The notes below the pieces were generated by a model. The model ran no database searches. It was given only the letters and a program-made list of their open reading frames with translations, and had not been told where the DNA came from. A stretch of 64,000 nt of DNA from assembly GCF_009931435.1 (NCBI RefSeq), contig NZ_CP043414.1; one strand, given 5' to 3'. Below, one piece after another: positions 1,528-42,927 of the stretch. Numbering within the stretch: position 1 is the stretch's first letter; each line of letters opens with the position of its first letter. Source of the DNA: Escherichia coli (GTDB taxonomy: Bacteria; Pseudomonadota; Gammaproteobacteria; Enterobacterales; Enterobacteriaceae). The translations under genes were made by a program, and so were the position numbers.

Positions 1528-4680
<3,153 letters not shown>

Positions 4681-9373: not shown

Positions 9374-9487
9374 GGGTGGGGGCCCTGCCAGCTACATCCC
9401 GGCACACACGTCATCTGCCTTGGCTGCTTCCTTCCGGACCTGACCTGGTAAACAGAGTAGCGTTGCGGGAGAACCAACAGAGCCCCC
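9374..9487 (-). ncRNA. ffs: 4.5S RNA (signal recognition particle RNA), 114 nt
   Basis: Minus strand reads GGGGGCTCTGTTGGTTCTCCCGCAACGCTACTCTGTTTACCAGGTCAGGTCCGGAAGGAAGCAGCCAAGGCAGATGACGTGTGTGCCGGGATGTAGCTGGCAGGGCCCCCACCC, the recalled E. coli 4.5S RNA sequence; expected between ybaA and atl. Confidence 0.92.
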
Positions 9488-27059: not shown

Positions 27060-27142
27060 AGAGCTCTCTCTTAGTTTAATTTCCGCCAGGTAATCAGATG
27101 ACACGACTGTGCTTCACGCCATCTATTAACATGTACGTCAGT

Positions 27143-27170
27143 ATATGGGGATGTTTCCCCCACATTCAAC
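27143..27170 (-). promoter_or_regulatory. sigma32 heat-shock promoter of lon
   Basis: Minus strand reads TTGAAT-gtgggggaaacat-CCCCATAT, matching the sigma32 -35/-10 consensus (cTTGAAa / CCCCATnT), about 85 nt upstream of the lon ATG. Confidence 0.7.
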
Positions 27171-27189
27171 GCCGAGAATAGAGGAAAAA

Positions 27190-27222
27190 TTAAAGGGGAG
27201 ATAAAATCCCCCCTTTTTGGTT
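27190..27222 (-). terminator. Rho-independent terminator after clpX
   Basis: Minus strand gggggga-ttttatc-tcccc followed by tttaattttt, just downstream of the clpX stop. Confidence 0.6.
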
Positions 27223-27246
27223 AACTAATTGTGTGGAAATGGTTAA

Positions 27247-38242: not shown

Positions 38243-39133
38243 ATGATGTTTAAGCAATACCTGCAAGTAACGAAACCAGGCATCATCTTTGGCAACCTGA
38301 TCTCGGTGATTGGGGGATTCCTGCTGGCCTCAAAGGGCAGCATTGATTATCCCCTGTTTATCTACACGCTGGTTGGGGTGTCACTGGTTGTGGCGTCGGG
38401 TTGTGTGTTTAACAACTACATCGACAGGGATATCGACAGAAAGATGGAAAGGACGAAGAATCGGGTGCTGGTTAAGGGCCTGATCTCTCCTGCTGTCTCG
38501 CTGGTGTACGCCACCTTGCTGGGTATTGCTGGCTTTATGCTGCTGTGGTTTGGCGCGAATCCGCTGGCCTGCTGGCTGGGGGTGATGGGCTTTGTGGTTT
38601 ATGTCGGCGTCTACAGCCTGTACATGAAACGCCACTCGGTCTACGGCACGTTGATTGGTTCGCTCTCTGGCGCTGCGCCGCCGGTGATCGGCTACTGTGC
38701 GGTAACCGGCGAGTTCGATAGCGGCGCAGCGATCCTGCTGGCTATCTTCAGCCTGTGGCAGATGCCTCACTCTTATGCCATCGCAATTTTCCGCTTTAAG
38801 GATTATCAGGCGGCAAACATTCCGGTACTGCCAGTGGTGAAAGGCATTTCGGTAGCGAAAAACCACATTACGCTGTATATCATCGCCTTTGCCGTTGCCA
38901 CGCTGATGCTCTCTCTTGGCGGTTACGCTGGGTATAAATATCTGGTGGTCGCCGCGGCGGTTAGCGTCTGGTGGTTAGGTATGGCGCTGCGTGGTTATAA
39001 AGTTGCTGATGATCGAATCTGGGCACGCAAGCTGTTCGGCTTCTCGATCATCGCCATCACTGCCCTCTCGGTAATGATGTCCGTTGATTTTATGGTGCCG
39101 GACTCGCATACGCTGCTGGCTGCTGTGTGGTAA
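38243..39133 (+). CDS. cyoE: Heme O synthase (protoheme IX farnesyltransferase) CyoE (296 aa)
   Basis: ORF 38198..39133 trimmed to [32 protein letters not shown]... Confidence 0.93.
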
Positions 39134-39145
39134 CACAACCTCTCT

Positions 39146-39176
39146 ATAAAAAAGGTGCTACGGCACCTTTTTTATT
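39146..39176 (+). terminator. Rho-independent terminator of the cyo operon
   Basis: aaaaaaggtgc-tacg-gcacc-ttttttatt directly after the cyoE stop. Confidence 0.75.
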
Positions 39177-39212
39177 GTCTGAGAACAGAGATACGGCTAA
39201 TAACCGTATCTC

Positions 39213-39241
39213 TTGACAGAGTGAGTATATGCACATAAATT
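39213..39241 (+). promoter_or_regulatory. Putative sigma70 promoter of the antitoxin-toxin operon
   Basis: TTGACA-N17-TAAATT about 75 nt upstream of the antitoxin ATG, immediately preceded by a 9-bp inverted repeat (gagatacgg-N7-ccgtatctc, 39188..39212). Confidence 0.4.
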
Positions 39242-39317
39242 AATCATTCGGTTGATAGCCGTATTATGCATGAGATCGACTCCCTACGATTTCATTCAGT
39301 TAATCAAAGAGGTCATA

Positions 39318-39629
39318 ATGCCTGGAAAAACAGTCGCTCTACCCGATATCGATAAAACGCTGAAAAATGCGCGGGTTGAACTCAAAACCAGTCCCGACGC
39401 CAAAAACAAACTTCGTGAAGCTGCGCAAGCCGTTGGGGTAGATTTAAGCGCTTTTATTTTGAGCGCAGCTATGGAACGCGCCGAAAGTGTGCTTGATAAC
39501 CAACGTCGCCGTGAGCTTTCGAATCAAAGCTGGGAACTGATGAACCAACTCATCGCTGAACCTGCTCAACCGACGCTCGCCCTCAAGGCGTTAATGAAAA
39601 GGAAAAACAGCGATGGTCGACAAGCATGA
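39318..39629 (+). CDS. Putative type II antitoxin, DUF1778 family (TacA/AtaR-like ribbon-helix-helix), 103 aa
   Basis: ATG 39318 preceded by RBS aaagagg; product MPGKTVALPDIDKTLKNARVELKTSPDAKNKLREAAQAVGVDLSAFILSAAMERAESVLDNQRRRELSNQSWELMNQLIAEPAQP... has the size and pattern of DUF1778 antitoxins; 17-nt overlap with the downstream GNAT gene. Confidence 0.75.
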   Translation: MPGKTVALPDIDKTLKNARVELKTSPDAKNKLREAAQAVGVDLSAFILSAAMERAESVLDNQRRRELSNQSWELMNQLIAEPAQPTLALKALMKRKNSDGRQA

Positions 39630-40155
39630 AGAGATTACTCTGCCCATAGTCCTCTCCTGTAATTATCAGTCTGATATTACTTATCCTGGGCAAAAACAGT
39701 TTGATTGCGGTAACCCTGTTATCGATAAATTTGTACGCGCATCGCTAAAGAAAAGTGTGCGTAATAGCGACTGTGCTGCTAAAGCACTTATTGACAGACA
39801 AAGTGGTGAACTGATTGGCATCTGTACTTTTACGGCATATTCGCTGGAAAAACAACGCGTTTCTGGCGTCCTTCAGGGTTCACAACCTTCAGAGATTGGT
39901 GTTGTCAGATTAGTCATGTTAGGGGTAGCGCGGAAATATCAAAAGCGGGGCTTTGGTCAGGACCTACTATGTGATTTTTTTGAACATGTAAAAATAATTC
40001 ACCGGGCATTACCAATTAAAGGGGTTTATCTTGATGCTGACCCTGCCGCCATTAACTTTTATACTCGTCTCGGCTTTGTTCAGCTTTCAGCGAGGCCCAA
40101 TGTTTTCGGTGCTGTACCGATGTTTTTAGCGATTCAGCATATTCTCGCGGCTTAG
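39613..40155 (+). CDS. Putative GNAT-fold acetyltransferase toxin (TacT/AtaT/ItaT-like), 180 aa
   Basis: MVDKHEEITLP...FDCG...RLVMLGVARKYQKRGFGQDLL...INFYTRLGF carries the GNAT acetyl-CoA motif (R/Q-x-x-G-x-G/A); start overlaps the antitoxin stop, typical of translationally coupled TA pairs. Confidence 0.75.
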   Translation: MVDKHEEITLPIVLSCNYQSDITYPGQKQFDCGNPVIDKFVRASLKKSVRNSDCAAKALIDRQSGELIGICTFTAYSLEKQRVSGVLQGSQPSEIGVVRLVMLGVARKYQKRGFGQDLLCDFFEHVKIIHRALPIKGVYLDADPAAINFYTRLGFVQLSARPNVFGAVPMFLAIQHILAA

Positions 40156-40210
40156 ATTATTATCGCCTCCGGCCATGGCAAGTTTTGCCTCAGCCGGGGA
40201 CTGAGCAGCG

Positions 40211-41146
40211 TTACCACTTTTGTTCAATTGCCCCCGCTTTCATCAGGTCCACATCCTTGCCTTTAATGGTTGCCGTTGCGGCAACCATTGTGGTCCTTAT
40301 TGCTGCACAAGATTTTCGTTCAAATTCCGGTTTATAAAGAATAAGCAACGAATTACTGGTAAATGAATCAAGCCGGTAATCTGTAAAGTTAATATCCAGT
40401 CGGTTTAAGCCGAAAGGTGCAAAGCCGACCGTTTGAATAGTTTCCTTACCTGACGGACTCTTGATGTTGTACGTAACACGAAGATTGGCCACTTCGCCTA
40501 ATTTATTGGTTTTGGCAAAGAGGCTATCCATGCAGGAAAAACCTTTATCTAAAAAATTATCCCGCATTCCAGAACGGGTAATCGTGATCACAGGTAACGT
40601 ATCGTCAACCGTTTTTCTGTCAATCATATCTTTTCGACAGGTGGCCATAAAGTCTTCCGGACCAGTATAAATGTGAACACCCTTATCAAGATATTCTTTC
40701 GCTTTACTACAATCCACCTCGACATACTGACCATTGGCGTACATCATGCCCAACCTGGACCATGCTAAATTCACACCGCGTTGCGTAGCCTGATTAAATA
40801 ACGCATACGCTTTGGCATAATCCACCCGCACCTGTTCACCTTCGTAGTAGATATCCCCCAGCGCTAACGGAGCTTCTTCATCACCTTGTTTAGCGGCTAA
40901 CTCGAACCATTTAATGGCTTCCTGAACGTTGGGTTTGGTATCGTAGCGGGGCTGATAATATTCCCAGCCTAACAGGCTTTGCGCGTCGACATCCCCCGAC
41001 TCAGCCATTTTATACAGTGTCCTTATCACATCGGGGGCAGGCTTTTCACTGTATATGCTGTCATACAATTCATGCGCTTTCTCGCTTGCCAGTGAACCTT
41101 GTGAGGCAATTAATAAAATAGCCAATAAACTCTTTTCATTTAACAT
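40211..41146 (-). CDS. Secreted Sel1-like repeat (SLR/TPR-like) protein with an unassigned C-terminal domain, 311 aa
   Basis: N-terminal Sec signal peptide (MLNEKSLLAILLIASQGSLA|SE); Sel1 repeats (LGWEYYQ..., LGDIYYEGEQVRVDYAKAYALFNQATQRG, LGMMYANGQYVEVDCSKAKEYLDKG); C-terminal 160 aa unrecognised; convergent with the TA operon. Confidence 0.75.
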   Translation of the reverse strand: MLNEKSLLAILLIASQGSLASEKAHELYDSIYSEKPAPDVIRTLYKMAESGDVDAQSLLGWEYYQPRYDTKPNVQEAIKWFELAAKQGDEEAPLALGDIYYEGEQVRVDYAKAYALFNQATQRGVNLAWSRLGMMYANGQYVEVDCSKAKEYLDKGVHIYTGPEDFMATCRKDMIDRKTVDDTLPVITITRSGMRDNFLDKGFSCMDSLFAKTNKLGEVANLRVTYNIKSPSGKETIQTVGFAPFGLNRLDINFTDYRLDSFTSNSLLILYKPEFERKSCAAIRTTMVAATATIKGKDVDLMKAGAIEQKW

Positions 41147-41562
41147 AAATAACCTTTATGCATCCATCACTATATTTTTCAATAAACCTAACCACCAAAC
41201 ATCCACTTCATGAATAAATACACAGCCATAACAACCTCAGGTAATAAGTAAACATTTAAGCTGAAGCAGAATAACCAGCACCTCCAACACCTCTATTTAT
41301 TGCGATAAAATAACACCATCCTTTAATAAAAAATCACACGCTCATCAACAAATCCGAAAATAATATCATTCGTGGCAGGATAAAATCAGGCGAGCTTTTC
41401 ATTTGTTATATTTAACGCACAAAGTATTAATGGCAAGAATACGAGGGAAGCGCATGCCTGACGTAAAAATCACGCTCTTATGTAATATTTACTCATTAAC
41501 ACTCTGTTTACCCAACATGCGCTCCGCACTACACTATGTGGGCAATTTTTTAAGAGGTGGTA

Positions 41563-42927
41563 ATGAACGATTATAAAATGACGCCAGGTGAGCGGCGCGC
41601 GACCTGGGGTTTAGGGACCGTATTTTCATTGCGCATGCTGGGCATGTTTATGGTACTGCCGGTTCTAACTACGTACGGTATGGCACTGCAAGGTGCCAGT
41701 GAAGCATTAATCGGTATTGCCATTGGTATTTATGGCCTGACTCAGGCCGTTTTTCAGATTCCGTTTGGCCTGCTCTCAGACCGTATTGGTCGCAAACCAT
41801 TAATTGTCGGCGGGCTGGCGGTGTTTGCTGCCGGTAGTGTTATCGCTGCGCTTTCCGACTCAATCTGGGGAATTATTCTGGGCCGGGCGTTACAAGGTTC
41901 TGGAGCGATTGCCGCTGCCGTTATGGCGCTACTTTCTGATCTCACGCGCGAACAAAACCGCACCAAAGCGATGGCGTTTATCGGCGTGAGTTTTGGCATT
42001 ACCTTCGCCATTGCGATGGTACTTGGCCCTATCATCACTCACAAACTTGGACTGCACGCGCTGTTCTGGATGATCGCTATTCTGGCAACGACCGGTATTG
42101 CGTTGACCATTTGGGTTGTGCCCAACAGCAGCACGCACGTACTTAATCGTGAGTCCGGAATGGTGAAAGGCAGTTTCAGCAAAGTGCTGGCAGAACCGCG
42201 ACTGCTGAAACTCAACTTCGGCATTATGTGTCTGCACATGCTGCTGATGTCGACGTTTGTTGCCCTGCCCGGACAGTTGGCTGATGCGGGGTTCCCGGCG
42301 GCTGAGCACTGGAAGGTCTATCTGGCGACGATGTTAATCGCCTTTGGCTCGGTTGTGCCTTTCATTATCTACGCGGAAGTTAAGCGCAAAATGAAGCAAG
42401 TCTTTGTCTTCTGCGTCGGGCTGATCGTGGTTGCGGAAATTGTGTTGTGGAACGCACAAACGCAGTTCTGGCAACTGGTGGTCGGCGTGCAGCTTTTCTT
42501 TGTGGCGTTTAATTTGATGGAAGCCCTCCTCCCCTCGCTTATCAGTAAAGAGTCGCCAGCCGGTTACAAAGGTACGGCGATGGGCGTTTACTCCACCAGC
42601 CAGTTTCTTGGCGTGGCCATTGGCGGTTCGCTGGGTGGCTGGATTGACGGCATGTTTGACGGTCAGGGCGTATTTCTCGCTGGCGCAATGCTGGCCGCTG
42701 TGTGGCTGGCTGTCGCCAGTACCATGAAAGAACCGCCGTATGTAAGCAGTTTGCGCATTGAAATCCCATCGGACATTGCCGCAAACGAGGCGTTAAAAGT
42801 GCGTTTGCTGGAAACTGCGGGTGTCAAAGAAGTGTTGATTGCAGAAGAAGAACATTCGGCTTACGTGAAAATCGACAGCAAAGTGACGAATCGCTTTGAA
42901 GTTGAACAGGCAATTCGTCAGGCATAA
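41563..42927 (+). CDS. yajR: MFS transporter YajR (454 aa)
   Basis: ORF 41557..42927 trimmed to ATG 41563 (MNDYKMTPGERRATWGLGTVFSLRMLGMFMVLPVLTTYG...); RBS aagagg. Confidence 0.93.
   Translation: MNDYKMTPGERRATWGLGTVFSLRMLGMFMVLPVLTTYGMALQGASEALIGIAIGIYGLTQAVFQIPFGLLSDRIGRKPLIVGGLAVFAAGSVIAALSDSIWGIILGRALQGSGAIAAAVMALLSDLTREQNRTKAMAFIGVSFGITFAIAMVLGPIITHKLGLHALFWMIAILATTGIALTIWVVPNSSTHVLNRESGMVKGSFSKVLAEPRLLKLNFGIMCLHMLLMSTFVALPGQLADAGFPAAEHWKVYLATMLIAFGSVVPFIIYAEVKRKMKQVFVFCVGLIVVAEIVLWNAQTQFWQLVVGVQLFFVAFNLMEALLPSLISKESPAGYKGTAMGVYSTSQFLGVAIGGSLGGWIDGMFDGQGVFLAGAMLAAVWLAVASTMKEPPYVSSLRIEIPSDIAANEALKVRLLETAGVKEVLIAEEEHSAYVKIDSKVTNRFEVEQAIRQA

Follow-up and report, generated by a model that had tools for sequence, protein, structure and literature searches.

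The overlapping gene pair between cyoE and yajR in an Escherichia coli chromosome is very probably an intact allele of the toxin-antitoxin operon itaRT

Downstream of cyoE in the E. coli contig NZ_CP043414.1 lie two overlapping ORFs, and the question they raise is which toxin-antitoxin system, if any, they encode and whether it is intact. The window referred to throughout is the whole stretch of 64,000 nucleotides that was analysed. In RefSeq the first product carries the label 'DUF1778 domain-containing protein' and the second 'GNAT family N-acetyltransferase', with no system name attached to either. The original prediction, made from the sequence alone, had described the pair as TacAT/AtaRT/ItaRT-like. 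As a family attribution this holds, but it can now be sharpened to ItaRT itself, given 176 identical residues out of 180 in the toxin and the position of the pair at the cyoE-yajR locus. We are highly confident that this is itaRT, a type II toxin-antitoxin operon of E. coli, in an intact allelic form; the near-identity of the toxin to the solved ItaT structure makes it an allele of itaRT proper more than a relative. The module is already known, and all those defining features of ItaRT that can be judged from sequence are present. What is new is minor: a candidate operator architecture, a private variant within it and co-inheritance with a Sel1-repeat gene. The features of the locus are collected in the table.

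Table. Features of the itaRT locus and its immediate neighbourhood (window coordinates)
Feature	Coordinates	Strand	Evidence
cyoE intrinsic terminator, left edge of the variable island	39146..39175	+	Perfect 13-bp inverted repeat followed by a T-run; BLAST
Candidate operator O1, palindrome ATACGGCTAATAACCGTAT, abutting the -35 hexamer	39191..39209	.	Inverted repeat and conservation
Putative sigma-70 promoter of itaRT (TTGACA, 17-nt spacer, TAAATT)	39213..39241	+	Consensus scan, 10/12 matches
Candidate operator O2, palindrome ATTCGGTTGATAGCCGTAT, directly downstream of the -10 hexamer	39246..39264	.	Inverted repeat and conservation
Ribosome-binding site AAAGAGG of itaR	39306..39312	+	Read from the sequence
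itaR, antitoxin, 103 aa	39318..39629	+	PF08681; KacA and AtaR matches; identity to WP_001353405.1; dN/dS
itaT, GNAT toxin, 180 aa, aminoacyl-tRNA N-acetyltransferase	39613..40155	+	7BYY; GNAT Pfam matches; residues; dN/dS
Stable GC-rich hairpin between the convergent itaT and Sel1 genes	40167..40199	.	-28.6 kcal/mol, z=-2.35
Sel1-repeat protein, 311 aa, island neighbour outside the toxin-antitoxin pair	40211..41146	-	Three Sel1 repeats (Pfam)

Both reading frames are intact according to the sequence and the ORF list. The itaR frame opens with an ATG at 39318 and closes, after 103 codons, with a TGA stop at 39627-39629; the itaT frame has its ATG at 39613 and, 180 codons later, its stop at 40153-40155. 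The two genes share the 17 nt from 39613 to 39629. The AAAGAGG motif (39306-39312) is separated from the itaR ATG by 5 nt, and a weaker AAAGGA motif within itaR (39598-39603) stands 9 nt ahead of the itaT ATG. Because the itaT start lies 17 nt inside the end of itaR, translation of the two genes is probably coupled. The order, with the antitoxin first in a bicistronic arrangement, is that of the GNAT/DUF1778 type II family (TacAT/AtaRT/KacAT). The original prediction was correct on this layout (overlapping ORFs of 103 and 180 aa, a strong ribosome-binding site and a 17-nt overlap), and every peptide segment that it quoted (SAFILSAAMERAES, QKRGFGQDLL, FDCG and YTRLGF) was found in the window proteins.

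In a search of the PDB, the window toxin matched chain A of entry 7BYY with E=1.3e-115 and 175 identical residues out of 180. This entry is E. coli ItaT with an engineered, inactivating G115D substitution (Zhang et al. 2020; PMC7367177), and residue 115 of the window protein is the wild-type G, so that the identity to wild-type ItaT inferred from 7BYY is 176/180. With the engineered D115 accounted for, four natural differences are left (R131Q, T151A, R161T and V164A). These separate natural alleles and are clustered in the C-terminal third. The next nearest solved relatives are the GNAT toxins KacT, AtaT and TacT (E=1.7e-6 to 2e-3). Pfam gave matches to PF13508, PF13673 and PF00583 (E=1.6e-7 to 8e-6), so the GNAT toxin that had been predicted, together with hits to PF13673 and PF00583, is confirmed by both Pfam and 7BYY. 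The calculated mass of ItaT is about 19.9 kDa (19.95) and that of ItaR 11.37 kDa; the values given by Wilcox et al. are 19.8 and 11.4 kDa, respectively (PMC6125619). The window ItaT is 100% identical to WP_000227787.1 of E. coli 2013C-4282, and proteins identical to the pair are annotated in strains 2013C-4282 and 2017-02-2CC.

A list of functional residues was taken from PMC7367177 and then checked in the window protein. All of those with a published mutant effect are unchanged: V36, I37, F40 and M102, which form the hydrophobic pocket proposed to read the amino-acid side chain (PMC7367177); L133, at the dimer interface; K46, K47 and K80, in the basic tRNA patch (PMC7367177); and G115 and Y150. 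The rest of the basic patch (K39, R42, R50 and R82) is likewise retained, and in total 14 of the 14 residues listed are identical. The acetyl-CoA loop, Q/RxxGxG/A, is present as QKRGFG, including G115, and the catalytic Y150 is in place.

The antitoxin was identified as a DUF1778 protein, again as predicted: the Pfam TacA1/DUF1778 model (PF08681) matches ItaR with E=1.3e-17 over model positions 1-78 of 80. The protein is laid out as an N-terminal ribbon-helix-helix followed by a C-terminal toxin-binding region (DUF1778/TacA1). A search of the PDB with ItaR found no ItaR structure; it gave full-length alignments to KacA (5ZGN, E=3.5e-11) and AtaR (6AJM, E=8.6e-9). In the alignment, the DNA-contact residues R8 and R12 of KacA correspond to R19 and K23 of ItaR. 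The window protein is 100% identical to WP_001353405.1 (E. coli 2013C-4282).

Both genes are under purifying selection, with dN/dS between 0.03 and 0.21. For itaR the values are 0.21 against E. coli SE11 and 0.12 against Pseudocitrobacter; for itaT they are 0.095 and 0.027, respectively. NCBIfam returned exclusively sub-threshold matches, generic ones for the antitoxin (MobA, RelB and TraJ) and weak ones for the toxin (MshD, PaiA and RimI); it is uninformative here because it includes no curated ItaRT model. PADLOC matched neither ItaR nor ItaT and lends no support to membership of a catalogued anti-phage defence system.

The region upstream of itaR contains the putative promoter and, bracketing it, two copies of a 19-bp palindrome with the consensus RTACGG-N7-CCGTAY. 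The core TACGG-N7-CCGTA occurs only twice in the 64-kb window, where 1.13 occurrences are expected with one mismatch allowed; this count is not significant by itself, and what speaks for the palindromes is where they lie, at the promoter, and that they are conserved across lineages. For this comparison we used loci encoding relatives of ItaT from Pseudocitrobacter (89% identity), from Serratia, Rahnella, Superficieibacter, Buttiauxella and Edaphovirga (68-70%) and from plasmids of Citrobacter freundii (77%) and Serratia marcescens (63%). In nine of the ten lineages, counting the window and E. coli SE11, RTACGG-N7-CCGTAY is found twice at a spacing of 55-61 bp, and a TTGAC hexamer separates the two copies; in Superficieibacter it is found once. 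None of these 19 sites departs from the CGG and CCG triplets. We infer that the two palindromes are candidate operators for ItaR. No operator or palindrome is mentioned by Wilcox et al. in 2018 (PMC6125619).

The distant orthologues differ from the E. coli locus in having a leader of 150-200 nt between the second palindrome and itaR. This leader includes a small ORF, 16-22 codons long, with a GGAG-like motif ahead of it (at about 3570-3640 in locus L007, about 3577-3630 in L008, about 3575-3628 in L011, 2637-2687 in L014 and 2522-2590 in L015). It is absent from the E. coli and Pseudocitrobacter loci, and the peptides show no obvious conservation. The two plasmid-borne relatives, on a 97-kb plasmid of C. 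freundii (L014, 2706-3546) and an 84-kb plasmid of S. marcescens (L015, 2643-3534), both keep the two-palindrome promoter. One of these two extrachromosomal relatives lies downstream of a RepB replication gene; the other is flanked by genes annotated as baseplate and phage tail, neighbours that make the element probably a phage-plasmid.

One base of O2 sets the window apart. Position 39248 is a T, whereas all the other 18 candidate operator sites have an A here, and this T is private to the window among 1358 E. coli genomes in which the region is present. None of these 1358 genomes is identical to the window over 39225-39300, and the best matches differ there by exactly one base; over 39140-40210, two or three base differences separate the window from its nearest relatives. 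The substitution could weaken autorepression through O2, or it could be a sequencing error.

The pair is inserted between the cyoE terminator and yajR; a BL21 derivative and SE11 have it there too, as do the closest strains. Comparison of the cyoE-yajR position in the window, the BL21 derivative and SE11 places all three at a shared chromosomal locus. In a BLAST comparison with the empty site of K-12 type, homology ends at 39173 and resumes at 41484, which defines a variable segment of approximately 2.3 kb (39174-41483). This island contains itaRT and a convergent Sel1-repeat gene and is missing from K-12. Of 5426 complete E. coli genomes, 1371 have the segment, each in a single copy, and the others lack it. 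DNA of itaRT that is at least 99% identical occurs in 102 genomes among the 5426; for the 3.6 kb from 38600 to 42200, which include the Sel1 gene and the start of yajR, the same threshold is reached in two genomes only. The locus is a mosaic, and the difference between these two counts suggests recombination inside the island. Since yajR and the Sel1 gene are 87-94% identical to those of most E. coli, an origin in an Escherichia species other than E. coli was also considered; it was rejected because the adjacent 8 kb (tig, bolA, ampG and cyoABC) match practically all complete E. coli genomes at 95-99.5% identity. Elsewhere in the window, Rfam matches at gathering level were obtained for the sraA sRNA (27131-27226, + strand) and the bacterial small SRP RNA (ffs; 9383-9479, - strand), both ordinary E. 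coli features.

The 311-aa Sel1 neighbour is annotated as a tetratricopeptide repeat protein, and its N-terminus looks like a signal peptide. Compared with SE11, the Sel1 gene is 87% identical at the nucleotide level (263 of 311 residues), whereas itaRT is far less diverged, at 97-98%; in the intergenic stretch on the yajR side, identity falls to 72%. A Pseudocitrobacter MAG (L006, 3706-7012) has the same arrangement of cyoE, itaR-itaT (86% and 89% identical in amino acids, respectively) and, convergent to these, a gene for a 308-aa Sel1-repeat protein, with another for one of 494 aa after it. This matching order indicates that the insertion site and the unit of itaRT with Sel1 are common to both genera. 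A terminator scan after itaT found no canonical intrinsic terminator: the hairpin between the convergent genes has no T-run on either side. It may nevertheless act as a transcription stop.

The original prediction had stated that the target tRNA and the activity of the toxin were unknown. For ItaRT this is out of date, as both have been published (PMC6125619, PMC7367177 and PMC9177977). Produced alone, ItaT arrests growth and blocks methionine incorporation within minutes (PMC6125619). The Y150A substitution abolishes its toxicity, co-expression of ItaR rescues growth (PMC6125619) and the two proteins co-purify in apparently stoichiometric amounts (PMC6125619). ItaT was shown to acetylate Ile-tRNAIle in vitro, and its action in vivo extends to Val- and Met-tRNA (PMC7367177). 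Ribosome profiling under ItaT revealed pauses at Ile codons, chiefly AUU and AUC (PMC9177977), and peptidyl-tRNA hydrolase counteracts the toxicity (PMC9177977), which places the block at elongation. A 172-bp fragment from upstream of the operon of E. coli HS has promoter activity (PMC6125619); it is repressed approximately 40-fold by the ItaR-ItaT complex, not by ItaR alone, and independently of acetyltransferase activity (PMC6125619).

These functional data were obtained with the HS allele, which is 98% identical to the window allele, and we infer that the latter behaves in the same way. On that basis, the sigma-70 promoter (39213-39241) would give a bicistronic itaR-itaT mRNA, from which itaR would be translated using its strong ribosome-binding site and itaT by coupling through the start codon 17 nt inside the end of itaR. 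ItaT, by orthology a dimeric GNAT enzyme, would acetylate primarily Ile-tRNAIle, and Val- and Met-tRNA as well. The blocked aminoacyl-tRNAs would be barred from elongation, leading to pausing at Ile codons and a stop in growth. ItaR would bind ItaT tightly and neutralise it. The operon would be repressed by the ItaR-ItaT complex rather than by ItaR alone, presumably through the two 19-bp palindromes that bracket the -35 and -10 hexamers, each bound by ribbon-helix-helix domains of ItaR. An extension of this scheme, which we regard as doubtful, is that the ItaRT clade uses a two-site operator in which one complex of ItaR4-ItaT2 type, or two cooperating complexes, clamps the -35 and -10 hexamers from either side, that the A-to-T change in O2 is partly derepressing in this strain and, as a separate point, that the trio of itaRT and the Sel1 gene, kept behind cyoE in both genera, is a functional unit and not a chance association.

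Several other explanations of the locus were weighed against an intact itaRT. The operon might be a remnant, its toxin inactivated or attenuated by natural substitutions, and decay is indeed frequent among chromosomal toxin-antitoxin modules, as is generally known. Such a reading would point to the four substitutions relative to characterised ItaT (131, 151, 161 and 164), all in the C-terminal third, and particularly to T151, which adjoins the catalytic Y150. However, T151 is also found in the Buttiauxella orthologue and the position varies across orthologues (A/T/V). Both frames are open, the residues shown to be important by mutagenesis are all kept and dN/dS is 0.03-0.21. Moreover, identical proteins are found in 2013C-4282 and 2017-02-2CC, and 102 genomes match the locus DNA with an identity of at least 99%. 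We consider decay or attenuation very improbable. The same differences from HS ItaT, which lie at the surface or in the C-terminal part, might instead reflect a functional pair whose toxin prefers another primary aminoacyl-tRNA, since GNAT toxins change specificity in the course of evolution (PMC9177977). The pocket (V36, I37, F40 and M102) and the basic tRNA-binding patch are unchanged, though, and 98% identity is well within the range of a single orthologue; a shifted target appears marginally less probable even than decay.

It might also be argued that the GNAT gene encodes a metabolic or protein acetyltransferase of the ordinary kind and that the ribbon-helix-helix protein is merely its transcription factor, with no toxin-antitoxin system involved. 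The generic GNAT matches in Pfam are modest (E about 1e-6 to 1e-7), and the weak sub-threshold NCBIfam matches are to RimI, PaiA and MshD. Yet the nearest solved relatives are all GNAT toxins (KacT, AtaT and TacT), and the window protein is nearly identical to a proven growth-arresting tRNA acetyltransferase that is neutralised by the product of the upstream gene. The published assays of the HS allele effectively refute this explanation, to which we attach almost no weight.

Beyond a correct annotation, this result has little significance. Naming the genes itaR and itaT does assign a known mechanism, N-acetylation of Ile-tRNAIle leading to translation arrest, to a module present in about a quarter of sequenced E. 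coli, including laboratory strains derived from BL21. In addition, the ItaR operator was left undefined in PMC6125619, and the conserved double palindrome gives its mapping a concrete starting point at little cost.

Among known systems, the closest is ItaRT of E. coli HS and BL21(DE3); the pair in BL21(DE3) was described as virtually identical by Wilcox et al. in 2018 (PMC6125619). The window shares with it the gene order, the 17-nt overlap, the lengths of 103 and 180 aa and the cyoE-yajR locus. ItaT is identical at 176 of 180 positions and ItaR at 100 of 103, and the functionally tested residues are all kept. The window ItaT has R131, T151, R161 and V164 where that of HS/BL21(DE3) has Q, A, T and A, respectively; in ItaR the differences are N-terminal, with V6, A7 and I11 in place of A, T and V. 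A further difference is the single base, T39248, by which O2 of the window stands alone.

KacA-KacT of Klebsiella pneumoniae (5ZGN; PMC6698736) and AtaR-AtaT of E. coli O157:H7 (6AJM/6GTS) have the same architecture, DUF1778 followed by GNAT, and ItaT, KacT and AtaT have in common the FDCG, Q/RxxGxG and FYxxxGF motifs. KacAT and AtaRT are autoregulated through a palindromic promoter operator, to which we liken the candidate palindromes of ItaRT. The toxins are nevertheless distant from ItaT (E about 1e-5 to 1e-6), and ItaR has an N-terminal extension of approximately 13 aa compared with KacA and AtaR. The tRNA preferences also differ (Ile, Val and Met for ItaT; Gly and others for AtaT), and the two separate palindromes around the window promoter contrast with the single palindrome across the transcription start of KacAT (PMC6698736). 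TacA-TacT of Salmonella enterica (5FVJ and 7AK8) is another member of this family, and the antitoxin model in Pfam takes its name from TacA. Like ItaT, TacT acetylates aminoacyl-tRNA and is counteracted by peptidyl-tRNA hydrolase. Its sequence similarity to ItaT is weak (E about 8e-4) and, unlike ItaT, both TacT and TacT3 are specific for Gly-tRNA in vivo (PMC9177977).
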